This document shows, one piece after another, positions 46,450 to 61,685 of a DNA stretch of 64,000 nucleotides; within the stretch, counting starts at the first letter, position 1; each line of letters starts with the position of its first letter. Source of the stretch: Eledone cirrhosa (lineage: Eukaryota); contig OZ024765.1 in assembly GCA_964016885.1 (NCBI GenBank), positions 20,646,001 through 20,710,000 of the forward strand, read 5' to 3'. The notes beneath the pieces were generated by a model that worked only from the letters and a program-made list of their open reading frames with translations, searched no databases and was not told the DNA's origin. Made by a program: the position numbers and the translations under genes.

Positions 46450-47087
46450 CATATATATATGTATATATATATATACATATATATATGTATATATATATAT
46501 ACATATATATATATGTATATATATACATATATATATATGTATATATATACATATATTAATAAGAGGAATTCCAACTTTGTCTGATTTACTCGTTTTATTT
46601 ACAATCCTTTAAAATATATATAATGGTATTATAATGAAATAGTATGATAGAATATTAAATTCTAAGTGTTAATTGAACAAGTACTTTCATGCTTTCGCAA
46701 TCTTCAGGTTCATGATATGTGGTGACAGTCGAGTTTGCAATTTTCAACTGTAATGAGATGGGTAAATTTCCTACCTTTTATACATTTTATACAGAGAAAA
46801 GTGGCTCCAGAATGCAAAGCCCTGTAAACTATATTTCGACCAATCAGTGTGTAGTTTCACTGAATTACTACAGCTGATTGGTTTAAGCGTCACGGCTGGT
46901 TGAACATGCTAACGACCAATAGTCATATCCAACGTATCAATTGTTTTGCTTTTTTGAAATGATGAAAATAGCATTTTCTATTAATCATCACCATCAACAT
47001 CACTTTTATTATTATTATTATTGTTGTTGTTGTTGTTGTTAGTGGTCGTGGTCATAGTGGTAGTAGAAGTAATACCCCTAGGCGTTA

Positions 47088-49274
47088 TTATTGTTCATTT
47101 AGCTTGGGTTTGAATTTATCAATAAAATTCTTTTCTTTGATTTTTCTCTTGATTTCATTTGGGCTGTGTAATTTGTAGAATGGGAATATTATAAATATTC
47201 CCTGACCACATGTTGCCAGGTGGCCGCTTAGGGGTATCTGACGGACATTTGGGTCTCTGATTTGTTGACGGTGTACCCGTGCACGTTCCGATAGTGCATT
47301 TCCAGTTTGACCGACATATAGTTCTTCACAATTCGGGCATTTAATGCAGTAAATTAGATTTCTGCTTTTGCAGTTCATATTTGCATTTGTGAATATTTTT
47401 CCAGTTTTTGTTTTCATATATTGACCGGCGTGTATGGATTGACATGTGCCGCATCGATTATCATTGCATTTAGATACAGTGAATGATTGGTCTTTGTTGT
47501 TAAGGTCAAACTTTGCTTTTGTTAGCAATTGCTTCAAATTTTTTGGCTGTCTTTTACTAAGAGTCAAAGATCGATCTGTGATTAAGCCTTTTAATTCATT
47601 ACTTTGAGCAATGATCGGTAGGTTTGCTTTGGCAGTGTTGAAGATATTCTGGTGACATGGGTTGTGTGTCATTATAAATGGTATGACCAGTTCTTGGTTT
47701 CTTCTTCTTTGGGTTGTTCTAAGTTGTTGTATAGGTATTTTTATAGCCCGCTGTATGCCATTTTCTATAAGTAGAGATGGGTATTTTTGTTTGAGCAAAA
47801 ATTCTCTTAGTTCTGTTAGGCGTTTGTACCTGGTATTTGTATCTTCTACAATGGTACAAATTCTTCTGGCTAGGCAGTATGGGATGTTGCGTTTTGTATG
47901 AGGTGGATGGCACGACTTAAAATTCAGATATTGATGGGTGTCTGTGTGTTTATAATATATATCCGTGGTAATGGTGGTGTCGTTTTTGATTATCATTATA
48001 TCTAGGAATGGTAATTTGGTCCTACTCATCTCTTTTGTGAATTGGAGAGATGGGTGTAGGTTATTCAGGAGGATATTGAACTCATCCAGAGTATCTAGAG
48101 ATTCTGTCCAGATGATGAAACAGTCGTCAAGGTATCTCTTCCAAGATTTTTCAATGTACTTTCTAAAGTCAGTACTATATTTTTCCTCTATTTCTTGGTA
48201 GAGTTGTTGTTCTAAGTATCCCATTACAGAGTTCGCGTAAACGGGAGCAAACTTCGTTCCCATCGCTGTGCCTCTAATTTGGATGTAATTCTTTCCATTG
48301 AAGAAGAAAGTGTTGTTTTCCAGAATAAGTTTAACTGCGTCTAATATAAATGGCGCTGTGAATCTAATGGGAATCACTTCTCTATGTTTTTCCACCCAGT
48401 ATTTAACCGCCTTTATTCCTAAATCATGTGTAATGTTGGTGTAAAGGCTTACCACATCAAAACTGAGTAGAAGTGAATTCGTTTCCGTGGTTTTGGGAAG
48501 ATGGGACAGGAAGTCGATATCATCCCGGATGAAACTGGGTATGTGAATACATAGTGGTTTCAAAATAATGTCAACAAAATTGCTTAGACGGTGAGTGGGG
48601 CATGTTGGACCAGCTATAATAGGTCTAAGTTTTAAGTCTTTTGGGTGTAATAATTTAATGTACTCACTGTTTTGTTCTCTTACTGCCAGTTGTATTTCTT
48701 TTGACTTGTGAACTTTCGGTAGGCCATACAGGTTGCTGGGTTTCGGCTCAAAATTGGTGATGTAGTCTCTTTCCTTATCAGTAAATGAGTTGTGGTATTT
48801 TGAAGCCAGGTTGTTGATCTTCTTCATGATGTTGTGGTCTATATTTGACGGTATTTCATGATAGAATGTTGTGTCTTTCAGTTGTTCCTCAACCAAATCC
48901 TTGTAGTATTCAGTATCCATTATAACAACTGCACCCCCTTTATCTGCTTGTTTAATTATTATTGTTTTATCCTTTTGTATACGTTTAAGTGCAGACATTT
49001 CTGATTTGTTAATGTTTGGCCTAACATTAGTATTATGTCTAAGAGGAAATTTAGACAGGATGTCAATGTATTGGTCGAGATAGATATTTCTTCCTTTTGG
49101 CGGAGTGAAATTTGATTTATTCTTTACTAGTGATTCATCACTCTCATTATTTTTATCAGCGAAGAATTCTACAAGACGTAATTTTCGACAGAATTCTTGG
49201 GTATCCTCCTTCAGTTCTTGGTGGTTGACTGTTGGAGTCGGTGTGAATTTCAGTCCTTTTGACAGAATTTGCAT
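47088..49274 (-). CDS. PLE RT-GIY-YIG ORF2, copy in the full unit of the left arm
   Basis: Translation identical to 58691..60877. Confidence 0.95.
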   Translation of the reverse strand: MQILSKGLKFTPTPTVNHQELKEDTQEFCRKLRLVEFFADKNNESDESLVKNKSNFTPPKGRNIYLDQYIDILSKFPLRHNTNVRPNINKSEMSALKRIQKDKTIIIKQADKGGAVVIMDTEYYKDLVEEQLKDTTFYHEIPSNIDHNIMKKINNLASKYHNSFTDKERDYITNFEPKPSNLYGLPKVHKSKEIQLAVREQNSEYIKLLHPKDLKLRPIIAGPTCPTHRLSNFVDIILKPLCIHIPSFIRDDIDFLSHLPKTTETNSLLLSFDVVSLYTNITHDLGIKAVKYWVEKHREVIPIRFTAPFILDAVKLILENNTFFFNGKNYIQIRGTAMGTKFAPVYANSVMGYLEQQLYQEIEEKYSTDFRKYIEKSWKRYLDDCFIIWTESLDTLDEFNILLNNLHPSLQFTKEMSRTKLPFLDIMIIKNDTTITTDIYYKHTDTHQYLNFKSCHPPHTKRNIPYCLARRICTIVEDTNTRYKRLTELREFLLKQKYPSLLIENGIQRAIKIPIQQLRTTQRRRNQELVIPFIMTHNPCHQNIFNTAKANLPIIAQSNELKGLITDRSLTLSKRQPKNLKQLLTKAKFDLNNKDQSFTVSKCNDNRCGTCQSIHAGQYMKTKTGKIFTNANMNCKSRNLIYCIKCPNCEELYVGQTGNALSERARVHRQQIRDPNVRQIPLSGHLATCGQGIFIIFPFYKLHSPNEIKRKIKEKNFIDKFKPKLNEQ

Positions 49275-49321
49275 TTCATCATTGTCAAGATCTCTTTTAG
49301 ATAAATTAATTATTTTAGGAT

Positions 49322-50671
49322 CTACGTGTACAGCTGTTTTGGGTATGTTTCCTCCTGGAGTTTTTCTTTTTCCGGTTTTTGTTGTCCTGACGTTAAAAAA
49401 TGAATTTTTCTCTGTTCAGGATTTATATTCCTGTTGGTGTTCGCTTGATGAACTTTTGGTCGTGATATTATATTTGGTTTCGTTATGTATTTTGTCCTAT
49501 TTTTGGTATTCTGTATATTATTTTTCTTCCTGTTAGCATTATTTTTAACAATCTGGGAAAATGACCTAGGTTTGCTTTCAGGTTTAGATCGTTTTTTCGT
49601 CCAGTTTCTTGTGGGCAATCTCTGTTGAGATCTTGAGAGTGATCTGGTTATTCTACGTTTTGTTTCCACATTCCTTGTTGGTAGTCTCTGTTGAGATCTT
49701 GAGAATGATCTCCTGGTTTTACTACTTCTCATGGTCTGGTCAAAGGAATACCTATCGTGTTTGTGCTTTTTGTTCATGTTGTGTGCGATAGGGTGTTTTT
49801 GTAGAAAAAGCGAAGAGTTATTACCGTAGTTCTTCTTTGATTCAAGGTAAGGTGAGTGTTTGTGTTGGCACGTGTTCTGGCGTATGTTGTGTTGATGAGA
49901 TTGTCCACTTTTAATGCTTTTTCTCAGGGTTCCAGAGTCTTTACCGTAATTTGCAGCATATTCATCGAGAAATAATTGTTTCTGCTGCCATACCTTTCTT
50001 GATTTGTTTTCTTCTTTTGAGATATCTCCGATCCATAGTTCTCGTAGTTTTTCAGCTATAATACCAGTCGTTAGCTTTGAAATTTCAACTTCAATTTGGT
50101 CATCAATAGCTTCATATTTGGCTTTGTAGCGGGAATGTTTACATTCAGAAATGGAGATGTCGGTCCTGAATTTTGTCAATGTAAGTTCCCATCGGAGTTT
50201 TGTTTCTTCTTCTGGTTCTCCTGCAATTTCTGTAATTAGGTATTTACGAGGGAGTATGGGTGCCGTTAGAGAGAGCCATTTCGAATGTGTTTCGACATAT
50301 TTTTCGCATCTGTATGCTTTCCAGAAATTTTGTTTTCTTATGTTAAGGAATTTTTTCCATGTCTTCCACATTTCTTTTCTTATTCGATGTGTTTTGTTTT
50401 CCAAATTTCTTTCGTTTATTTCTGACATCCAAGGGGGTTGTGGTAGGCTTTCTCTTGTATCTTTGATAACTGTTGGTATAATTTCAGCTAAATTCTTAAT
50501 TTCAGAGTTTATATGTTCAGTTATAAGTTTTCCGTCTGTAGATTGTTTTTCTATTTCCTTTAAAATAGAGGATTGTGTGTCCATCATCGTGATAAGTGTT
50601 GATAATTTCGATGATATCTCCTTTAGAATTCTTTCTGATTCTGTTGGTTTCATTTGTTGCTTTCCAGACAT
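49322..50671 (-). CDS. PLE ORF1, copy in the left arm
   Basis: Mirror copy of 57294..58643. Confidence 0.85.
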   Translation of the reverse strand: MSGKQQMKPTESERILKEISSKLSTLITMMDTQSSILKEIEKQSTDGKLITEHINSEIKNLAEIIPTVIKDTRESLPQPPWMSEINERNLENKTHRIRKEMWKTWKKFLNIRKQNFWKAYRCEKYVETHSKWLSLTAPILPRKYLITEIAGEPEEETKLRWELTLTKFRTDISISECKHSRYKAKYEAIDDQIEVEISKLTTGIIAEKLRELWIGDISKEENKSRKVWQQKQLFLDEYAANYGKDSGTLRKSIKSGQSHQHNIRQNTCQHKHSPYLESKKNYGNNSSLFLQKHPIAHNMNKKHKHDRYSFDQTMRSSKTRRSFSRSQQRLPTRNVETKRRITRSLSRSQQRLPTRNWTKKRSKPESKPRSFSQIVKNNANRKKNNIQNTKNRTKYITKPNIISRPKVHQANTNRNINPEQRKIHFLTSGQQKPEKEKLQEETYPKQLYT

Positions 50672-51291
50672 GTTGGCATATACACAATAGGAATATATAT
50701 ATATAGATATAGATAGGTAAATATACACGGGTGTGTATGATTGTGTATAGAAGATTATATTAATAAGAGGAATTCCAACTTTGTCTGATTTACTCGTTTT
50801 ATTTACAATCCTTTAAAATATATATAATGGTATTATAATGAAATAGTATGATAGAATATTAAATTCTAAGTGTTAATTGAACAAGTACTTTCATGCTTTC
50901 GCAATCTTCAGGTTCATGATATGTGGTGACAGTCGAGTTTGCAATTTTCAACTGTAATGAGATGGGTAAATTTCCTACCTTTTATACATTTTATACAGAG
51001 AAAAGTGGCTCCAGAATGCAAAGCCCTGTAAACTATATTTCGACCAATCAGTGTGTAGTTTCACTGAATTACTACAGCTGATTGGTTTAAGCGTCACGGC
51101 TGGTTGAACATGCTAACGACCAATAGTCATATCCAACGTATCAATTGTTTTGCTTTTTTGAAATGATGAAAATAGCATTTTCTATTAATCATCACCATCA
51201 ACATCACTTTTATTATTATTATTATTGTTGTTGTTGTTGTTGTTAGTGGTCGTGGTCATAGTGGTAGTAGAAGTAATACCCCTAGGCGTTA

Positions 51292-53478
51292 TTATTGTTC
51301 ATTTAGCTTGGGTTTGAATTTATCAATAAAATTCTTTTCTTTGATTTTTCTCTTGATTTCATTTGGGCTGTGTAATTTGTAGAATGGGAATATTATAAAT
51401 ATTCCCTGACCACATGTTGCCAGGTGGCCGCTTAGGGGTATCTGACGGACATTTGGGTCTCTGATTTGTTGACGGTGTACCCGTGCACGTTCCGATAGTG
51501 CATTTCCAGTTTGACCGACATATAGTTCTTCACAATTCGGGCATTTAATGCAGTAAATTAGATTTCTGCTTTTGCAGTTCATATTTGCATTTGTGAATAT
51601 TTTTCCAGTTTTTGTTTTCATATATTGACCGGCGTGTATGGATTGACATGTGCCGCATCGATTATCATTGCATTTAGATACAGTGAATGATTGGTCTTTG
51701 TTGTTAAGGTCAAACTTTGCTTTTGTTAGCAATTGCTTCAAATTTTTTGGCTGTCTTTTACTAAGAGTCAAAGATCGATCTGTGATTAAGCCTTTTAATT
51801 CATTACTTTGAGCAATGATCGGTAGGTTTGCTTTGGCAGTGTTGAAGATATTCTGGTGACATGGGTTGTGTGTCATTATAAATGGTATGACCAGTTCTTG
51901 GTTTCTTCTTCTTTGGGTTGTTCTAAGTTGTTGTATAGGTATTTTTATAGCCCGCTGTATGCCATTTTCTATAAGTAGAGATGGGTATTTTTGTTTGAGC
52001 AAAAATTCTCTTAGTTCTGTTAGGCGTTTGTACCTGGTATTTGTATCTTCTACAATGGTACAAATTCTTCTGGCTAGGCAGTATGGGATGTTGCGTTTTG
52101 TATGAGGTGGATGGCACGACTTAAAATTCAGATATTGATGGGTGTCTGTGTGTTTATAATATATATCCGTGGTAATGGTGGTGTCGTTTTTGATTATCAT
52201 TATATCTAGGAATGGTAATTTGGTCCTACTCATCTCTTTTGTGAATTGGAGAGATGGGTGTAGGTTATTCAGGAGGATATTGAACTCATCCAGAGTATCT
52301 AGAGATTCTGTCCAGATGATGAAACAGTCGTCAAGGTATCTCTTCCAAGATTTTTCAATGTACTTTCTAAAGTCAGTACTATATTTTTCCTCTATTTCTT
52401 GGTAGAGTTGTTGTTCTAAGTATCCCATTACAGAGTTCGCGTAAACGGGAGCAAACTTCGTTCCCATCGCTGTGCCTCTAATTTGGATGTAATTCTTTCC
52501 ATTGAAGAAGAAAGTGTTGTTTTCCAGAATAAGTTTAACTGCGTCTAATATAAATGGCGCTGTGAATCTAATGGGAATCACTTCTCTATGTTTTTCCACC
52601 CAGTATTTAACCGCCTTTATTCCTAAATCATGTGTAGTGTTGGTGTAAAGGCTTACCACATCAAAACTGAGTAGAAGTGAATTCGTTTCCGTGGTTTTGG
52701 GAAGATGGGACAGGAAGTCGATATCATCCCGGATGAAACTGGGTATGTGAATACATAGTGGTTTCAAAATAATGTCAACAAAATTGCTTAGACGGTGAGT
52801 GGGGCATGTTGGACCAGCTATAATAGGTCTAAGTTTTAAGTCTTTTGGGTGTAATAATTTAATGTACTCACTGTTTTGTTCTCTTACTGCCAGTTGTATT
52901 TCTTTTGACTTGTGAACTTTCGGTAGGCCATACAGGTTGCTGGGTTTCGGCTCAAAATTGGTGATGTAGTCTCTTTCCTTATCAGTAAATGAGTTGTGGT
53001 ATTTTGAAGCCAGGTTGTTGATCTTCTTCATGATGTTGTGGTCTATATTTGACGGTATTTCATGATAGAATGTTGTGTCTTTCAGTTGTTCCTCAACCAA
53101 ATCCTTGTAGTATTCAGTATCCATTATAACAACTGCACCCCCTTTATCTGCTTGTTTAATTATTATTGTTTTATCCTTTTGTATACGTTTAAGTGCAGAC
53201 ATTTCTGATTTGTTAATGTTTGGCCTAACATTAGTATTATGTCTAAGAGGAAATTTAGACAGGATGTCAATGTATTGGTCGAGATAGATATTTCTTCCTT
53301 TTGGCGGAGTGAAATTTGATTTATTCTTTACTAGTGATTCATCACTCTCATTATTTTTATCAGCGAAGAATTCTACAAGACGTAATTTTCGACAGAATTC
53401 TTGGGTATCCTCCTTCAGTTCTTGGTGGTTGACTGTTGGAGTCGGTGTGAATTTCAGTCCTTTTGACAGAATTTGCAT
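51292..53478 (-). CDS. PLE RT-GIY-YIG ORF2, copy in the 5'-truncated unit of the left arm
   Basis: Identical except YTNITH->YTNTTH (substitution at 52637). Confidence 0.95.
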   Translation of the reverse strand: MQILSKGLKFTPTPTVNHQELKEDTQEFCRKLRLVEFFADKNNESDESLVKNKSNFTPPKGRNIYLDQYIDILSKFPLRHNTNVRPNINKSEMSALKRIQKDKTIIIKQADKGGAVVIMDTEYYKDLVEEQLKDTTFYHEIPSNIDHNIMKKINNLASKYHNSFTDKERDYITNFEPKPSNLYGLPKVHKSKEIQLAVREQNSEYIKLLHPKDLKLRPIIAGPTCPTHRLSNFVDIILKPLCIHIPSFIRDDIDFLSHLPKTTETNSLLLSFDVVSLYTNTTHDLGIKAVKYWVEKHREVIPIRFTAPFILDAVKLILENNTFFFNGKNYIQIRGTAMGTKFAPVYANSVMGYLEQQLYQEIEEKYSTDFRKYIEKSWKRYLDDCFIIWTESLDTLDEFNILLNNLHPSLQFTKEMSRTKLPFLDIMIIKNDTTITTDIYYKHTDTHQYLNFKSCHPPHTKRNIPYCLARRICTIVEDTNTRYKRLTELREFLLKQKYPSLLIENGIQRAIKIPIQQLRTTQRRRNQELVIPFIMTHNPCHQNIFNTAKANLPIIAQSNELKGLITDRSLTLSKRQPKNLKQLLTKAKFDLNNKDQSFTVSKCNDNRCGTCQSIHAGQYMKTKTGKIFTNANMNCKSRNLIYCIKCPNCEELYVGQTGNALSERARVHRQQIRDPNVRQIPLSGHLATCGQGIFIIFPFYKLHSPNEIKRKIKEKNFIDKFKPKLNEQ

Positions 53479-54486
53479 TTCATCATTGTCAAGATCTCTT
53501 TTAGATAAATTAATTATTTTAGGATCTACGTGTACAGCTGTTTTGGGTATGTTTCCTCCTGGAGTTTTTCTTTTTCCGGTTTTTGTTGTCCTGACGTTAA
53601 AAAATGAATTTTTCTCTGTTCAGGATTTATATTCCTGTTGGTGTTCGCTTGATGAACTTTTGGTCGTGATATTATATTTGGTTTCGTTATGTATTTTGTC
53701 CTATTTTTGGTATTCTGTATATTATTTTTCTTCCTGTTAGCATTATTTTTAACAATCTGGGAAAATGACCTAGGTTTGCTTTCATTTATTTCTCGATGAA
53801 TATGCTGCAAATTACGGTAAAGACTCTGGAACCCTGAGAAAAAGCATTAAAAGTGGACAATCTCATCAACACAACATACGCCAGAACACGTGCCAACACA
53901 AACACTCACCTTACCTTGAATCAAAGAAGAACTACGGTAATAACTCTTCGCTTTTTCTACAAAAACACCCTATCGCACACAACATGAACAAAAAGCACAA
54001 ACACGATAGGTATTCCTTTGACCAGACCATGAGAAGTAGTAAAACCAGGAGATCATTCTCAAGATCTCAACAGAGACTACCAACAAGGAATGTGGAAACA
54101 AAACGTAGAATAACCAGATCACTCTCAAGATCTCAACAGAGATTGCCCACAAGAAACTGGACGAAAAAACGATCTAAACCTGAAAGCAAACCTAGGTCAT
54201 TTTCCCAGATTGTTAAAAATAATGCTAACAGGAAGAAAAATAATATACAGAATACCAAAAATAGGACAAAATACATAACGAAACCAAATATAATATCACG
54301 ACCAAAAGTTCATCAAGCGAACACCAACAGGAATATAAATCCTGAACAGAGAAAAATTCATTTTTTAACGTCAGGACAACAAAAACCGGAAAAAGAAAAA
54401 CTCCAGGAGGAAACATACCCAAAACAGCTGTACACGTAGATCCTAAAATAATTAATTTATCTAAAAGAGATCTTGACAATGATGAA

Positions 54487-56673
54487 ATGCAAATTCTGTC
54501 AAAAGGACTGAAATTCACACCGACTCCAACAGTCAACCACCAAGAACTGAAGGAGGATACCCAAGAATTCTGTCGAAAATTACGTCTTGTAGAATTCTTC
54601 GCTGATAAAAATAATGAGAGTGATGAATCACTAGTAAAGAATAAATCAAATTTCACTCCGCCAAAAGGAAGAAATATCTATCTCGACCAATACATTGACA
54701 TCCTGTCTAAATTTCCTCTTAGACATAATACTAATGTTAGGCCAAACATTAACAAATCAGAAATGTCTGCACTTAAACGTATACAAAAGGATAAAACAAT
54801 AATAATTAAACAAGCAGATAAAGGGGGTGCAGTTGTTATAATGGATACTGAATACTACAAGGATTTGGTTGAGGAACAACTGAAAGACACAACATTCTAT
54901 CATGAAATACCGTCAAATATAGACCACAACATCATGAAGAAGATCAACAACCTGGCTTCAAAATACCACAACTCATTTACTGATAAGGAAAGAGACTACA
55001 TCACCAATTTTGAGCCGAAACCCAGCAACCTGTATGGCCTACCGAAAGTTCACAAGTCAAAAGAAATACAACTGGCAGTAAGAGAACAAAACAGTGAGTA
55101 CATTAAATTATTACACCCAAAAGACTTAAAACTTAGACCTATTATAGCTGGTCCAACATGCCCCACTCACCGTCTAAGCAATTTTGTTGACATTATTTTG
55201 AAACCACTATGTATTCACATACCCAGTTTCATCCGGGATGATATCGACTTCCTGTCCCATCTTCCCAAAACCACGGAAACGAATTCACTTCTACTCAGTT
55301 TTGATGTGGTAAGCCTTTACACCAACATTACACATGATTTAGGAATAAAGGCGGTTAAATACTGGGTGGAAAAACATAGAGAAGTGATTCCCATTAGATT
55401 CACAGCGCCATTTATATTAGACGCAGTTAAACTTATTCTGGAAAACAACACTTTCTTCTTCAATGGAAAGAATTACATCCAAATTAGAGGCACAGCGATG
55501 GGAACGAAGTTTGCTCCCGTTTACGCGAACTCTGTAATGGGATACTTAGAACAACAACTCTACCAAGAAATAGAGGAAAAATATAGTACTGACTTTAGAA
55601 AGTACATTGAAAAATCTTGGAAGAGATACCTTGACGACTGTTTCATCATCTGGACAGAATCTCTAGATACTCTGGATGAGTTCAATATCCTCCTGAATAA
55701 CCTACACCCATCTCTCCAATTCACAAAAGAGATGAGTAGGACCAAATTACCATTCCTAGATATAATGATAATCAAAAACGACACCACCATTACCACGGAT
55801 ATATATTATAAACACACAGACACCCATCAATATCTGAATTTTAAGTCGTGCCATCCACCTCATACAAAACGCAACATCCCATACTGCCTAGCCAGAAGAA
55901 TTTGTACCATTGTAGAAGATACAAATACCAGGTACAAACGCCTAACAGAACTAAGAGAATTTTTGCTCAAACAAAAATACCCATCTCTACTTATAGAAAA
56001 TGGCATACAGCGGGCTATAAAAATACCTATACAACAACTTAGAACAACCCAAAGAAGAAGAAACCAAGAACTGGTCATACCATTTATAATGACACACAAC
56101 CCATGTCACCAGAATATCTTCAACACTGCCAAAGCAAACCTACCGATCATTGCTCAAAGTAATGAATTAAAAGGCTTAATCACAGATCGATCTTTGACTC
56201 TTAGTAAAAGACAGCCAAAAAATTTGAAGCAATTGCTAACAAAAGCAAAGTTTGACCTTAACAACAAAGACCAATCATTCACTGTATCTAAATGCAATGA
56301 TAATCGATGCGGCACATGTCAATCCATACACGCCGGTCAATATATGAAAACAAAAACTGGAAAAATATTCACAAATGCAAATATGAACTGCAAAAGCAGA
56401 AATCTAATTTACTGCATTAAATGCCCGAATTGTGAAGAACTATATGTCGGTCAAACTGGAAATGCACTATCGGAACGTGCACGGGTACACCGTCAACAAA
56501 TCAGAGACCCAAATGTCCGTCAGATACCCCTAAGCGGCCACCTGGCAACATGTGGTCAGGGAATATTTATAATATTCCCATTCTACAAATTACACAGCCC
56601 AAATGAAATCAAGAGAAAAATCAAAGAAAAGAATTTTATTGATAAATTCAAACCCAAGCTAAATGAACAATAA
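54487..56673 (+). CDS. PLE RT-GIY-YIG ORF2, copy in the 5'-truncated unit of the right arm
   Basis: Translation identical to 58691..60877. Confidence 0.95.
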   Translation: MQILSKGLKFTPTPTVNHQELKEDTQEFCRKLRLVEFFADKNNESDESLVKNKSNFTPPKGRNIYLDQYIDILSKFPLRHNTNVRPNINKSEMSALKRIQKDKTIIIKQADKGGAVVIMDTEYYKDLVEEQLKDTTFYHEIPSNIDHNIMKKINNLASKYHNSFTDKERDYITNFEPKPSNLYGLPKVHKSKEIQLAVREQNSEYIKLLHPKDLKLRPIIAGPTCPTHRLSNFVDIILKPLCIHIPSFIRDDIDFLSHLPKTTETNSLLLSFDVVSLYTNITHDLGIKAVKYWVEKHREVIPIRFTAPFILDAVKLILENNTFFFNGKNYIQIRGTAMGTKFAPVYANSVMGYLEQQLYQEIEEKYSTDFRKYIEKSWKRYLDDCFIIWTESLDTLDEFNILLNNLHPSLQFTKEMSRTKLPFLDIMIIKNDTTITTDIYYKHTDTHQYLNFKSCHPPHTKRNIPYCLARRICTIVEDTNTRYKRLTELREFLLKQKYPSLLIENGIQRAIKIPIQQLRTTQRRRNQELVIPFIMTHNPCHQNIFNTAKANLPIIAQSNELKGLITDRSLTLSKRQPKNLKQLLTKAKFDLNNKDQSFTVSKCNDNRCGTCQSIHAGQYMKTKTGKIFTNANMNCKSRNLIYCIKCPNCEELYVGQTGNALSERARVHRQQIRDPNVRQIPLSGHLATCGQGIFIIFPFYKLHSPNEIKRKIKEKNFIDKFKPKLNEQ

Positions 56674-56840
56674 TAACGCCTAGGGGTATTACTTCTACTA
56701 CCACTATGACCACGACCACTAACAACAACAACAACAACAATAATAATAATAATAAAAGTGATGTTGATGGTGATGATTAATAGAAAATGCTATTTTCATC
56801 ATTTCAAAAAAGCAAAACAATTGATACGTTGGATATGACT

Positions 56841-56985
56841 ATTGGTCGTTAGCATGTTCAACCAGCCGTGACGCTTAAACCAATCAGCTGTAGTAATTCA
56901 GTGAAACTACACACTGATTGGTCGAAATATAGTTTACAGGGCTTTGCATTCTGGAGCCACTTTTCTCTGTATAAAATGTATAAAA
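56841..56985 (+). promoter_or_regulatory. Putative Pol II promoter in the PLE 3'UTR/pLTR (3 CCAAT/ATTGG boxes, two TATAAAA)
   Basis: ATTGG 56841, CCAAT 56880, ATTGG 56917, TATAAAA 56970 and 56979, upstream of the HHR and ORF1 of the next unit. Confidence 0.5.
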
Positions 56986-57048
56986 GGTAGGAAATTTACC
57001 CATCTCATTACAGTTGAAAATTGCAAACTCGACTGTCACCACATATCA

Positions 57049-57087
57049 TGAACCTGAAGATTGCGAAAGCATGAAAGTACTTGTTCA
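57049..57087 (+). ncRNA. Minimal type I hammerhead ribozyme in the PLE pLTR (also 61253-61291 +, 46674-46712 -, 50878-50916 -)
   Basis: TGAAC-CTGAAGA-TTGCgaaaGCAT-GAAA-GTAC-TT-GTTCA: stem I, core boxes, GAAA-capped stem II, palindromic mini stem III. Confidence 0.85.
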
Positions 57088-57293
57088 ATTAACACTTAGA
57101 ATTTAATATTCTATCATACTATTTCATTATAATACCATTATATATATTTTAAAGGATTGTAAATAAAACGAGTAAATCAGACAAAGTTGGAATTCCTCTT
57201 ATTAATATAATCTTCTATACACAATCATACACACCCGTGTATATTTACCTATCTATATCTATATATATATATTCCTATTGTGTATATGCCAAC

Positions 57294-58643
57294 ATGTCTG
57301 GAAAGCAACAAATGAAACCAACAGAATCAGAAAGAATTCTAAAGGAGATATCATCGAAATTATCAACACTTATCACGATGATGGACACACAATCCTCTAT
57401 TTTAAAGGAAATAGAAAAACAATCTACAGACGGAAAACTTATAACTGAACATATAAACTCTGAAATTAAGAATTTAGCTGAAATTATACCAACAGTTATC
57501 AAAGATACAAGAGAAAGCCTACCACAACCCCCTTGGATGTCAGAAATAAACGAAAGAAATTTGGAAAACAAAACACATCGAATAAGAAAAGAAATGTGGA
57601 AGACATGGAAAAAATTCCTTAACATAAGAAAACAAAATTTCTGGAAAGCATACAGATGCGAAAAATATGTCGAAACACATTCGAAATGGCTCTCTCTAAC
57701 GGCACCCATACTCCCTCGTAAATACCTAATTACAGAAATTGCAGGAGAACCAGAAGAAGAAACAAAACTCCGATGGGAACTTACATTGACAAAATTCAGG
57801 ACCGACATCTCCATTTCTGAATGTAAACATTCCCGCTACAAAGCCAAATATGAAGCTATTGATGACCAAATTGAAGTTGAAATTTCAAAGCTAACGACTG
57901 GTATTATAGCTGAAAAACTACGAGAACTATGGATCGGAGATATCTCAAAAGAAGAAAACAAATCAAGAAAGGTATGGCAGCAGAAACAATTATTTCTCGA
58001 TGAATATGCTGCAAATTACGGTAAAGACTCTGGAACCCTGAGAAAAAGCATTAAAAGTGGACAATCTCATCAACACAACATACGCCAGAACACGTGCCAA
58101 CACAAACACTCACCTTACCTTGAATCAAAGAAGAACTACGGTAATAACTCTTCGCTTTTTCTACAAAAACACCCTATCGCACACAACATGAACAAAAAGC
58201 ACAAACACGATAGGTATTCCTTTGACCAGACCATGAGAAGTAGTAAAACCAGGAGATCATTCTCAAGATCTCAACAGAGACTACCAACAAGGAATGTGGA
58301 AACAAAACGTAGAATAACCAGATCACTCTCAAGATCTCAACAGAGATTGCCCACAAGAAACTGGACGAAAAAACGATCTAAACCTGAAAGCAAACCTAGG
58401 TCATTTTCCCAGATTGTTAAAAATAATGCTAACAGGAAGAAAAATAATATACAGAATACCAAAAATAGGACAAAATACATAACGAAACCAAATATAATAT
58501 CACGACCAAAAGTTCATCAAGCGAACACCAACAGGAATATAAATCCTGAACAGAGAAAAATTCATTTTTTAACGTCAGGACAACAAAAACCGGAAAAAGA
58601 AAAACTCCAGGAGGAAACATACCCAAAACAGCTGTACACGTAG
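57294..58643 (+). CDS. PLE ORF1, 449 aa from MSGKQQ: helical/coiled-coil-like N-terminus and basic R/S/K/N-rich C-terminus
   Basis: ATG in gccaacATG context; long open frame in AT-rich DNA; overlaps the ORF2 frame; function inferred only. Confidence 0.85.
   Translation: MSGKQQMKPTESERILKEISSKLSTLITMMDTQSSILKEIEKQSTDGKLITEHINSEIKNLAEIIPTVIKDTRESLPQPPWMSEINERNLENKTHRIRKEMWKTWKKFLNIRKQNFWKAYRCEKYVETHSKWLSLTAPILPRKYLITEIAGEPEEETKLRWELTLTKFRTDISISECKHSRYKAKYEAIDDQIEVEISKLTTGIIAEKLRELWIGDISKEENKSRKVWQQKQLFLDEYAANYGKDSGTLRKSIKSGQSHQHNIRQNTCQHKHSPYLESKKNYGNNSSLFLQKHPIAHNMNKKHKHDRYSFDQTMRSSKTRRSFSRSQQRLPTRNVETKRRITRSLSRSQQRLPTRNWTKKRSKPESKPRSFSQIVKNNANRKKNNIQNTKNRTKYITKPNIISRPKVHQANTNRNINPEQRKIHFLTSGQQKPEKEKLQEETYPKQLYT
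58565..58571 (+). promoter_or_regulatory. Candidate -1 ribosomal frameshift slippery heptamer U_UUU_UUA (also 54361-54367 +, 49394-49400 -, 53598-53604 -)
   Basis: ORF1 codons CAT TTT TTA; the -1 frame is ORF2, which opens after a TGA five codons upstream. Confidence 0.75.
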
Positions 58644-58690
58644 ATCCTAAAATAATTAATTTATCTAAAAGAGATCTTGACAATGATGAA

Positions 58691-60877
58691 ATGCAAATTC
58701 TGTCAAAAGGACTGAAATTCACACCGACTCCAACAGTCAACCACCAAGAACTGAAGGAGGATACCCAAGAATTCTGTCGAAAATTACGTCTTGTAGAATT
58801 CTTCGCTGATAAAAATAATGAGAGTGATGAATCACTAGTAAAGAATAAATCAAATTTCACTCCGCCAAAAGGAAGAAATATCTATCTCGACCAATACATT
58901 GACATCCTGTCTAAATTTCCTCTTAGACATAATACTAATGTTAGGCCAAACATTAACAAATCAGAAATGTCTGCACTTAAACGTATACAAAAGGATAAAA
59001 CAATAATAATTAAACAAGCAGATAAAGGGGGTGCAGTTGTTATAATGGATACTGAATACTACAAGGATTTGGTTGAGGAACAACTGAAAGACACAACATT
59101 CTATCATGAAATACCGTCAAATATAGACCACAACATCATGAAGAAGATCAACAACCTGGCTTCAAAATACCACAACTCATTTACTGATAAGGAAAGAGAC
59201 TACATCACCAATTTTGAGCCGAAACCCAGCAACCTGTATGGCCTACCGAAAGTTCACAAGTCAAAAGAAATACAACTGGCAGTAAGAGAACAAAACAGTG
59301 AGTACATTAAATTATTACACCCAAAAGACTTAAAACTTAGACCTATTATAGCTGGTCCAACATGCCCCACTCACCGTCTAAGCAATTTTGTTGACATTAT
59401 TTTGAAACCACTATGTATTCACATACCCAGTTTCATCCGGGATGATATCGACTTCCTGTCCCATCTTCCCAAAACCACGGAAACGAATTCACTTCTACTC
59501 AGTTTTGATGTGGTAAGCCTTTACACCAACATTACACATGATTTAGGAATAAAGGCGGTTAAATACTGGGTGGAAAAACATAGAGAAGTGATTCCCATTA
59601 GATTCACAGCGCCATTTATATTAGACGCAGTTAAACTTATTCTGGAAAACAACACTTTCTTCTTCAATGGAAAGAATTACATCCAAATTAGAGGCACAGC
59701 GATGGGAACGAAGTTTGCTCCCGTTTACGCGAACTCTGTAATGGGATACTTAGAACAACAACTCTACCAAGAAATAGAGGAAAAATATAGTACTGACTTT
59801 AGAAAGTACATTGAAAAATCTTGGAAGAGATACCTTGACGACTGTTTCATCATCTGGACAGAATCTCTAGATACTCTGGATGAGTTCAATATCCTCCTGA
59901 ATAACCTACACCCATCTCTCCAATTCACAAAAGAGATGAGTAGGACCAAATTACCATTCCTAGATATAATGATAATCAAAAACGACACCACCATTACCAC
60001 GGATATATATTATAAACACACAGACACCCATCAATATCTGAATTTTAAGTCGTGCCATCCACCTCATACAAAACGCAACATCCCATACTGCCTAGCCAGA
60101 AGAATTTGTACCATTGTAGAAGATACAAATACCAGGTACAAACGCCTAACAGAACTAAGAGAATTTTTGCTCAAACAAAAATACCCATCTCTACTTATAG
60201 AAAATGGCATACAGCGGGCTATAAAAATACCTATACAACAACTTAGAACAACCCAAAGAAGAAGAAACCAAGAACTGGTCATACCATTTATAATGACACA
60301 CAACCCATGTCACCAGAATATCTTCAACACTGCCAAAGCAAACCTACCGATCATTGCTCAAAGTAATGAATTAAAAGGCTTAATCACAGATCGATCTTTG
60401 ACTCTTAGTAAAAGACAGCCAAAAAATTTGAAGCAATTGCTAACAAAAGCAAAGTTTGACCTTAACAACAAAGACCAATCATTCACTGTATCTAAATGCA
60501 ATGATAATCGATGCGGCACATGTCAATCCATACACGCCGGTCAATATATGAAAACAAAAACTGGAAAAATATTCACAAATGCAAATATGAACTGCAAAAG
60601 CAGAAATCTAATTTACTGCATTAAATGCCCGAATTGTGAAGAACTATATGTCGGTCAAACTGGAAATGCACTATCGGAACGTGCACGGGTACACCGTCAA
60701 CAAATCAGAGACCCAAATGTCCGTCAGATACCCCTAAGCGGCCACCTGGCAACATGTGGTCAGGGAATATTTATAATATTCCCATTCTACAAATTACACA
60801 GCCCAAATGAAATCAAGAGAAAAATCAAAGAAAAGAATTTTATTGATAAATTCAAACCCAAGCTAAATGAACAATAA
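58691..60877 (+). CDS. PLE reverse transcriptase + C-terminal GIY-YIG endonuclease (ORF2; frame open upstream from about 58550)
   Basis: LYGLPKVHK, LRPIIA, SFDVVSLYTN, GTAMG, RYLDDCF, LPFLD, YYKHT RT motifs; CNDNRCGTC linker; NLIYCIKCPNCEELYVGQT..R...H GIY-YIG. Confidence 0.96.
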   Translation: MQILSKGLKFTPTPTVNHQELKEDTQEFCRKLRLVEFFADKNNESDESLVKNKSNFTPPKGRNIYLDQYIDILSKFPLRHNTNVRPNINKSEMSALKRIQKDKTIIIKQADKGGAVVIMDTEYYKDLVEEQLKDTTFYHEIPSNIDHNIMKKINNLASKYHNSFTDKERDYITNFEPKPSNLYGLPKVHKSKEIQLAVREQNSEYIKLLHPKDLKLRPIIAGPTCPTHRLSNFVDIILKPLCIHIPSFIRDDIDFLSHLPKTTETNSLLLSFDVVSLYTNITHDLGIKAVKYWVEKHREVIPIRFTAPFILDAVKLILENNTFFFNGKNYIQIRGTAMGTKFAPVYANSVMGYLEQQLYQEIEEKYSTDFRKYIEKSWKRYLDDCFIIWTESLDTLDEFNILLNNLHPSLQFTKEMSRTKLPFLDIMIIKNDTTITTDIYYKHTDTHQYLNFKSCHPPHTKRNIPYCLARRICTIVEDTNTRYKRLTELREFLLKQKYPSLLIENGIQRAIKIPIQQLRTTQRRRNQELVIPFIMTHNPCHQNIFNTAKANLPIIAQSNELKGLITDRSLTLSKRQPKNLKQLLTKAKFDLNNKDQSFTVSKCNDNRCGTCQSIHAGQYMKTKTGKIFTNANMNCKSRNLIYCIKCPNCEELYVGQTGNALSERARVHRQQIRDPNVRQIPLSGHLATCGQGIFIIFPFYKLHSPNEIKRKIKEKNFIDKFKPKLNEQ

Positions 60878-61685
60878 TAACGCCTAGGGGTATTACTTCT
60901 ACTACCACTATGACCACGACCACTAACAACAACAACAACAACAATAATAATAATAATAAAAGTGATGTTGATGGTGATGATTAATAGAAAATGCTATTTT
61001 CATCATTTCAAAAAAGCAAAACAATTGATACGTTGGATATGACTATTGGTCGTTAGCATGTTCAACCAGCCGTGACGCTTAAACCAATCAGCTGTAGTAA
61101 TTCAGTGAAACTACACACTGATTGGTCGAAATATAGTTTACAGGGCTTTGCATTCTGGAGCCACTTTTCTCTGTATAAAATGTATAAAAGGTAGGAAATT
61201 TACCCATCTCATTACAGTTGAAAATTGCAAACTCGACTGTCACCACATATCATGAACCTGAAGATTGCGAAAGCATGAAAGTACTTGTTCAATTAACACT
61301 TAGAATTTAATATTCTATCATACTATTTCATTATAATACCATTATATATATTTTAAAGGATTGTAAATAAAACGAGTAAATCAGACAAAGTTGGAATTCC
61401 TCTTATTAATATAATCTTCTATACACAATCATACACACCCGTGTATATTTACCTATCTATATCTATATATATATATACATATATATATGTATATATATAC
61501 ATATATATGTATATATATACATATATATATATATGTAGATATGTATATATATATTCATATATTTATGTATACATATATATATATATGTATATATATATAT
61601 GTATATATATATAAATATATATATGTATACATATATATATATGTATATATATATATATATGTATATATATATACATATATATATG

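Follow-up and report, generated by a model that had tools for sequence, protein, structure and literature searches.

A conserved in-register slippery heptamer at the overlap of ORF1 and the reverse transcriptase-endonuclease frame suggests -1 frameshifting in a Neptune-like Penelope element of Eledone cirrhosa

Penelope-like elements (PLEs) have been divided in review into those with one open reading frame (ORF) and an endonuclease (EN) and those with two ORFs and none (PMC6431247), and canonical EN-positive PLEs are called single-ORF (PMC8557442). In EN-negative PLEs of the Athena and Coprina types ORF1 is often set apart by a frameshift with a pseudoknot, according to the legend of Fig. 1 in PMC8557442, and the corresponding preprint legend links the layout of Coprina to that of Athena. 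Coprina has two ORFs, with coil and disordered regions in ORF1 (PMC13159263), and Terminons carry GDSL ORFs (PMC5408684). We analyzed a stretch of 64,000 nucleotides (nt) from Eledone cirrhosa (GCA_964016885.1, contig OZ024765.1, positions 20,646,001 to 20,710,000, forward strand; here called the window). It contains a Penelope retrotransposon that is active, Neptune-like in its enzymes and ends, and made up of two reading frames that overlap, ORF1 and a reverse transcriptase (RT) frame. The junction between them is best explained by programmed -1 ribosomal frameshifting, with a probability that we put at roughly 0.8 from the sequence.

The element shares with Neptune and Nematis a GIY-YIG endonuclease at the C terminus, the CCHH arrangement, a linker of the form CX2-5CxxC, targets made of (TA)n, tandem and inverted insertions with pseudo-long terminal repeats (pseudo-LTRs) and a minimal hammerhead motif (PMC8557442; PMC6431247). 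The RT frame carries the motifs GxKF, DKG, CxxC and His, and a CX4CX2C-type linker was also found in relatives. Neptune and Nematis are described as single-ORF, whereas the window element has two ORFs, an ORF1 of about 400 amino acids (aa) overlapping, at -1 and across a conserved heptamer, an RT frame without its own start. The first-pass annotation had noted that canonical EN-positive PLEs are described as single-ORF, and the reviews agree, but Chlamys-2_cBra, Chlamys-5_cBra and the killifish Neptune repeat.CL27 do have an upstream ORF1. In the two Chlamys elements the endonuclease is N-terminal and ORF1 has a zinc knuckle (PMC8557442 supplement); the killifish ORF1 is only 140 aa long and does not overlap the next frame (PMC12602865). 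Neither source mentions a frameshift for these elements in its accessible part.

ORF1 and the RT frame have 94 nt in common, RT being at -1 (Table 1). Re-derivation of the coordinates bore out the first-pass description of a 449-aa ORF1 with an in-register T_TTT_TTA, an RT frame that opens 5 codons before this heptamer after a TGA, and a conserved RT motif that begins ahead of the first Met. A fusion made at the heptamer is predicted to have 1194 aa, the size given earlier as approximate. Four near-identical copies had been noted in the window; the junction is indeed the same in 4/4, but the whole ORF1 is intact in only two of them, at 57273-61476 (+) and about 46489-50692 (-), the others having lost their 5' part at an inversion. 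In the rest of the genome, 40/40 scored candidates (of 1653) were identical across 58300-58900, and six Ts followed by A were present in 63/63 alignments spanning the site, which came from 60 loci with some overlap between them. Exact matches genome-wide numbered 327 for the six-T form and 3 for a seven-T form, the latter three copies being stop-broken and 92-95% identical to the window. The family is thus not one continuous ORF, and a copy-specific indel was rejected on these counts, with the same split in relatives. The overlap tail at 58572-58643 (G-x-Q-x-P-E ... P-K) is kept among the closest ORF1s, and the RT linker is not conserved between families; the tail could hide an RNA signal.

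Conservation of the heptamer in diverged relatives had been proposed as a check, and an in-register X_XXY_YYZ was found at a -1 overlap in 17/17 two-ORF junctions, from two RT clades and down to about 30% RT identity. In the window's own RT group, T_TTT_TTR was in register with RT at -1 in 12/12 junctions. Seven of these lie in public contigs (L061, L063, L064, L065, L069, L070 and L142; 7/7), with RT N-termini 23-68% identical. The synonymous codons at these seven sites all favor the T run, with a joint chance of about 10^-5.4 given each element's codon usage, the window being excluded. Three further families of the same genome (L262, L263, L257) have T_TTT_TTA and ORF1s 28-30% identical to that of the window; L079, of the same RT clade, has T_TTT_TTG, and the window itself completes the set. 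The second clade (Shimodaira-Hasegawa-like approximate likelihood ratio test support of 100 in a quick tree built from unnamed loci only) was two-ORF at -1 with an in-register heptamer in 5/5 junctions. It is T_TTT_TTA in L093, L094 and L106. In L088 and L126, contigs that end ahead of any endonuclease, it is T_TTA_AAC, immediately before the ORF1 stop, and the RT frame opens one codon earlier (heptamer region of L088, 2252-2261). [quoted passage not shown] By Atlas features (0.93), the ORF1 of L106 ends in a GDSL/SGNH esterase-like domain, which we regard as a lead; this region had no sequence match in PDB.

The RT frame was closed 0-15 codons upstream of the heptamer in 17/17 junctions, and 13/17 had no in-frame Met between this upstream stop and the N-terminal motif. 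The other clades of the tree consisted of conventional single-ORF elements, in which 150-360 codons were open upstream. Not included in the 17 were L161, which has only 117 open codons at -1, L090, which comes without upstream DNA, and L147. In L147 (2808-5800) the N-terminal domain of canonical PLEs is part of ORF1 (hmmsearch E 1.4e-4), which overlaps RT at -1 with G_GGT_TTT in register, and no endonuclease motif was found; at this single locus, the layout may be a mutation.

The protein side was consistent with the DNA junctions. Among 153 ORF1 proteins, 99 of them at least 300 aa long, the residues FL or FF occurred within the last 60 residues of 83/99 long homologs (FL in 80, FF in 3), compared with 14/99 for the preceding 60 residues. 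Directly before FL, K, E, Q, M and W, which have no T-ending codon, were found in 0/83 against a background of 19%.

ORF1 itself is, on the evidence of sequence profiles, a real, large and unnamed protein family. A word search found four homologs, one of them named, from Mytilus edulis, and a profile made from four sequences retrieved 565 clusters (50% identity) at E<=0.001 and 280 at 1e-10. AlphaFold2, run with 54 sequences, predicted long helices for residues 11-241 and disorder for the remainder, with block values of the predicted local distance difference test of 86-98 across residues 81-240; W105, R112, P141 and W213 are conserved, and the C-terminal half has 24% K+R and 5% D+E. ORF1 matched no Pfam family above cut-off, Foldseek gave no match at E<=0.001 against PDB (first model) or against viral models, Atlas matches were all below 0.9, and no relative was found in viral contigs. 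The best match in VIA (Z 9.1, root mean square deviation 6.4 over 124 residues) was a generic three-helix bundle. Homology to the N-terminal domain of single-ORF PLEs was considered but not demonstrated, the likeness being at motif level only (a P-x-x-L loop between long helices): hhalign gave a probability of at most 1% with E 0.05-0.14 versus 0.22-0.47 for reversed controls, and the best hmmsearch E was 0.005. With a helical half that would oligomerize and a basic half that would bind RNA, ORF1 would play a Gag-like or LINE-ORF1p-like role. Its homologs were at most 706 aa long throughout, among the 150 matches listed, and none of 7999 longer candidates searched proved to be a fused relative, which is weak evidence. 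The best 120 RT homologs likewise spanned 517-817 aa, none of them fused to ORF1; the named ones among them are from bivalves or bivalve-symbiont bins. Retroelement proteins in records labeled as bacterial symbionts or bins (P0012, P0016, P0075, P0097, L142, L141-L198) are probably host DNA carried over.

These data support the earlier interpretation of gag-pol-like expression, as far as sequence can. Most ribosomes would translate ORF1 and terminate at its stop, and a minority would move one base back on U_UUU_UUA and continue into a 1194-residue ORF1-RT-endonuclease fusion; both the slip itself and its low efficiency are what we infer. ORF1 would then coat the element RNA and deliver the rare RT fusion. 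Frameshifting is favored because only tandem -1 slippage accounts for the register, the frame and the swap between two textbook heptamers. Of the two, U_UUA_AAC is listed with the eukaryotic heptamers that shift most readily, and human immunodeficiency virus type 1 (HIV-1) has U_UUU_UUA as its site (PMC5009743).

Several findings weigh against this reading, together with the splice-like signals and fused copies described below. No FL or FF was present in the tails of 16/99 long ORF1 homologs, and the search profile (A1) included a window-type tail, so that FL matches may have been favored. Kinship between families makes the probabilities overstate independence. An in-frame Met precedes the motif in 4/17 junctions, and chance slippery-type heptamers also occur upstream in single-ORF elements. 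The lack of a strong downstream hairpin, already remarked on at first pass, was confirmed: in the window, 3' folding was not better than shuffles (z +0.26 to +0.87), and simple scans for local pairing across 18 junctions gave folding no better than shuffles (best z -1.9) and no shared pseudoknot. A crude pseudoknot scan gave a clear win over 12 shuffles for L063 only, with an implausibly long loop. In the window, a hairpin enclosing the slip site reached z -2.14 (6/200 shuffles).

The position of the ORF1 stop may bear on this. It was never fewer than 9 codons after F-L in 83 proteins and exactly 10 codons after it in 24/83. In the 15 six-T DNA junctions it was never under 10 codons and stood at 10 in 6/15, from both clades (L064, L065, L069, L079, L094, L257), when shuffles led us to expect 35-48% under 9 codons and about 3% at 10. 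Homologs with the 10-codon label cluster on the ORF1 tree, although the label needs 13 changes there, at least 7 of them forced. Because ten codons are approximately one ribosome length, the following ribosome could be kept waiting on the heptamer by one that is terminating, and the spacing, a sequence pattern, may reflect such queuing. More speculatively, the pause for the slip would be supplied by the ribosome terminating at an ORF1 stop 10 codons downstream. This is not demonstrated for the window element, because its own ORF1 tail after the heptamer is 23 codons long. A weak, undetected structure that includes the ORF1 stop is an alternative to queuing. Low-level shifts without stimulators exist (PMC5009743), and ribosome collisions alter frameshifting in bacteria, according to the accessible part of PMC6815119.

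Alternative splicing is the serious rival to frameshifting, although we consider it improbable. A short pseudo-LTR exon bearing an ATG would be joined to a 3' acceptor located where ORF1 ends, with the T run as polypyrimidine tract, and RT would be made from its own mRNA. Spliceosomal introns do occur in PLEs, and an acceptor-like string, TTTTTTAG, is present in 9/18 junctions with its AG in phase 2 of the RT frame; the first AG is likewise in phase 2 in the window and L142. In the window, the phase-2 ATG and donor (56976-56988) and the phase-2 AG (58577-58578) would even join in frame. A G-starting codon follows FL in 60/84 ORF1 homologs, but in the remaining 24/84 a G after FL is impossible, and 7/18 junctions carry their first AG in phase 0 or phase 1. 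The TTG variants have no AG and the T_TTA_AAC variants no tract, yet both are still slippery, and phase-2 ATG/donor candidates exist in only 4/12 families, at no common position. ORF1 runs through the site, in register and with RT at -1, in 17/17 junctions, none of which splicing needs. No spliced genomic copy was found, which is a weak test because PLEs keep introns through retrotransposition (PMC3846280); no joint was seen at this position in contigs from three sequencing runs whose kind is not on record, a weak observation that is silent on expression.

If instead RNA polymerase II added a U on the six-T run, part of the mRNAs would carry a fused frame. Six Ts are short for polymerase slippage. 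The invariance of the T6 run in 15 junctions, the lack of a detected 3' RNA structure and the three seven-T genomic copies would suit this explanation, but polymerase slippage is independent of codon register and the run always begins at the third codon position; the T_TTA_AAC sites of L088 and L126 have no long run, and the seven-T copies are old and broken. It is very improbable. We give equally little credence to RT made without fusion, whether ribosomes reinitiate, enter internally or start at a non-AUG codon close to the stop of ORF1. LINE-1 ORF2 uses reinitiation, near-cognate codons at 58577, 58619 and 58652 lie in the RT frame ahead of the motif, and the four junctions with an upstream in-frame Met would allow it. 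It leaves unexplained, however, why an in-register heptamer is conserved 10-40 codons ahead of the stop of ORF1, and an internal start has to contend with the 13/17 junctions that lack a Met and, in the window, with 24 ATGs ahead of the first RT Met, which itself falls inside the conserved N-terminal motif. A single-ORF element, with the split due to mutation or to an error of assembly, is already refuted by the copy counts (327 six-T versus 3 seven-T), the conservation of the ORF1 tail and the identical split in 17 diverged families, and its probability is close to nil. In its favor, Naiads are described with frameshift-prone linkers (PMC8557442), and family B of the same genome (L249-L253, L255, L260, L261, L264, L265, L234) includes copies fused in frame, the loci L249-L265 having been chosen for their long frames. 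The family B fusions stem from poly-C length changes of several sizes about 35 nt downstream of the heptamer, which is kept in all but one, and they look like copy-level mutation or homopolymer error.

Table 1. Coordinates of the element and its features in the window
Feature	Position	Strand	Remark
5'-truncated tandem copy, source of the upstream pseudo-LTR	53783..57272	+	99.97% identity to 57987-61476
Inverted partner, one full and one 5'-truncated copy	46466..53784	-	ORF1 49322-50671; RT frames 47088-49415, 51292-53619
Full-length element unit	57273..61476	+	4204 bp, ends in (TA)n
Candidate ATG and splice-donor-like site in pseudo-LTR	56976..56992	+	ATG TAT AAA AG/GT 56976-56988, phase 2
ORF1, 449 aa	57294..58643	+	predicted all-helical N-terminal half, basic low-complexity C-terminal half
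Conserved helical domain, ORF1 residues 80-241	57531..58016	+	three long predicted helices
TGA closing the RT frame 5 codons before the heptamer	58547..58549	+	sequence
RT-GIY-YIG frame, 775 aa stop to stop	58550..60877	+	-1 to ORF1; first ATG 58691
T_TTT_TTA slippery heptamer, ORF1 register	58565..58571	+	ORF1 codons CAT TTT TTA 58563-58571; putative shift site
Candidate 3' splice-acceptor-like stretch	58565..58578	+	T run, AG at 58577-58578, phase 2 of RT frame
Conserved N-terminal RT motif IINLS ... KGLKFTPTP	58652..58732	+	starts 13 codons ahead of first Met
Reverse transcriptase core, YLDD	59444..59866	+	Pfam RVT_1, E 2.9e-6
CX4CX2C linker between RT and endonuclease, Neptune/Nematis type	60497..60523	+	sequence; definition PMC8557442
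GIY-YIG endonuclease, CxxC inside core and two downstream His (CCHH)	60608..60868	+	Pfam GIY-YIG, E 3.2e-6, passing its cut-off
Minimal type-I hammerhead-like motif in 3' end	61253..61291	+	stem I, CUGAAGA, stem II, GAAA, palindromic stem III

The whole insertion is an inverted tandem of four copies within (TA)n, two full and two 5'-truncated units, in a (TA)n-rich genome of 3.0 Gb; pseudo-LTR, tandem and inverted arrangement and (TA)n target, all membership features of Neptune/Nematis, are present. The hammerhead-like motif, repeated by the upstream copy at 57049-57087, was recognized by eye, regular expression and folding (core motif, stems I and II) and typed as in PMC4209133; an Rfam scan gave no hammerhead match at the 3' end of the element. 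In two different families (L254, L215), the point where a 5'-truncated copy abuts (TA)n coincides precisely with the heptamer's TA, and these joins probably arose by microhomology. Simple repeats, of (TA)n type and others, take up much of the window, positions 18874-19073 are a 200-base assembly gap, and a non-LTR-type RT frame of 811 codons at 28485-30920 (-), which we take to be RTE-like, has a cluster of cysteines resembling a PHD finger immediately behind its RT core.

By its mode of working the element is gag-pol- or Athena-like, and by its enzymes and ends it is Neptune-like. With HIV-1 gag-pol it shares U_UUU_UUA and a structural protein first with the polymerase at -1 (PMC5009743), and Gly is the commonest residue after F-L in ORF1 homologs (30/84), as in HIV-1. 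It differs in having no stable 3' stem-loop that we could find, no protease, capsid, zinc knuckle or LTRs, and it is not a virus. Athena/Terminon and Coprina elements have an upstream coiled-coil ORF1; for the upstream ORF1 of the window element long helices are predicted. Athena and Coprina are telomeric and lack an endonuclease, whereas the window element has GIY-YIG, (TA)n flanks and no conserved pseudoknot that was found. No programmed frameshift appears in the accessible parts of PMC5718144, PMC6515669 and PMC3846280, and the literature consulted holds no report of a frameshift in EN-positive PLEs; the 2007 and 2017 Athena papers, Arkhipova 2006, Repbase and Dfam were outside its scope, and prior notice is possible. 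It may be that -1 frameshifting is widespread and overlooked in EN-positive PLEs, in two or more RT clades whose ORF1s are unrelated (one a helical family without a name that counts hundreds of clusters, one with a GDSL-like end), and driven by queuing at a stop 10 codons on instead of RNA structure, but we hold this wider proposal to be rather unlikely.

A large, currently active EN-positive group with an ORF1 and a conserved -1 site breaks the single-ORF/two-ORF division of PLEs, and its layout ties Neptune-like elements to Athena and Coprina. Annotation of RT alone loses one third of its length. Natural U_UUU_UUA sites by the hundred, which have no evident RNA stimulator but a striking stop spacing, make structure-free or collision-driven -1 frameshifting in animals testable.

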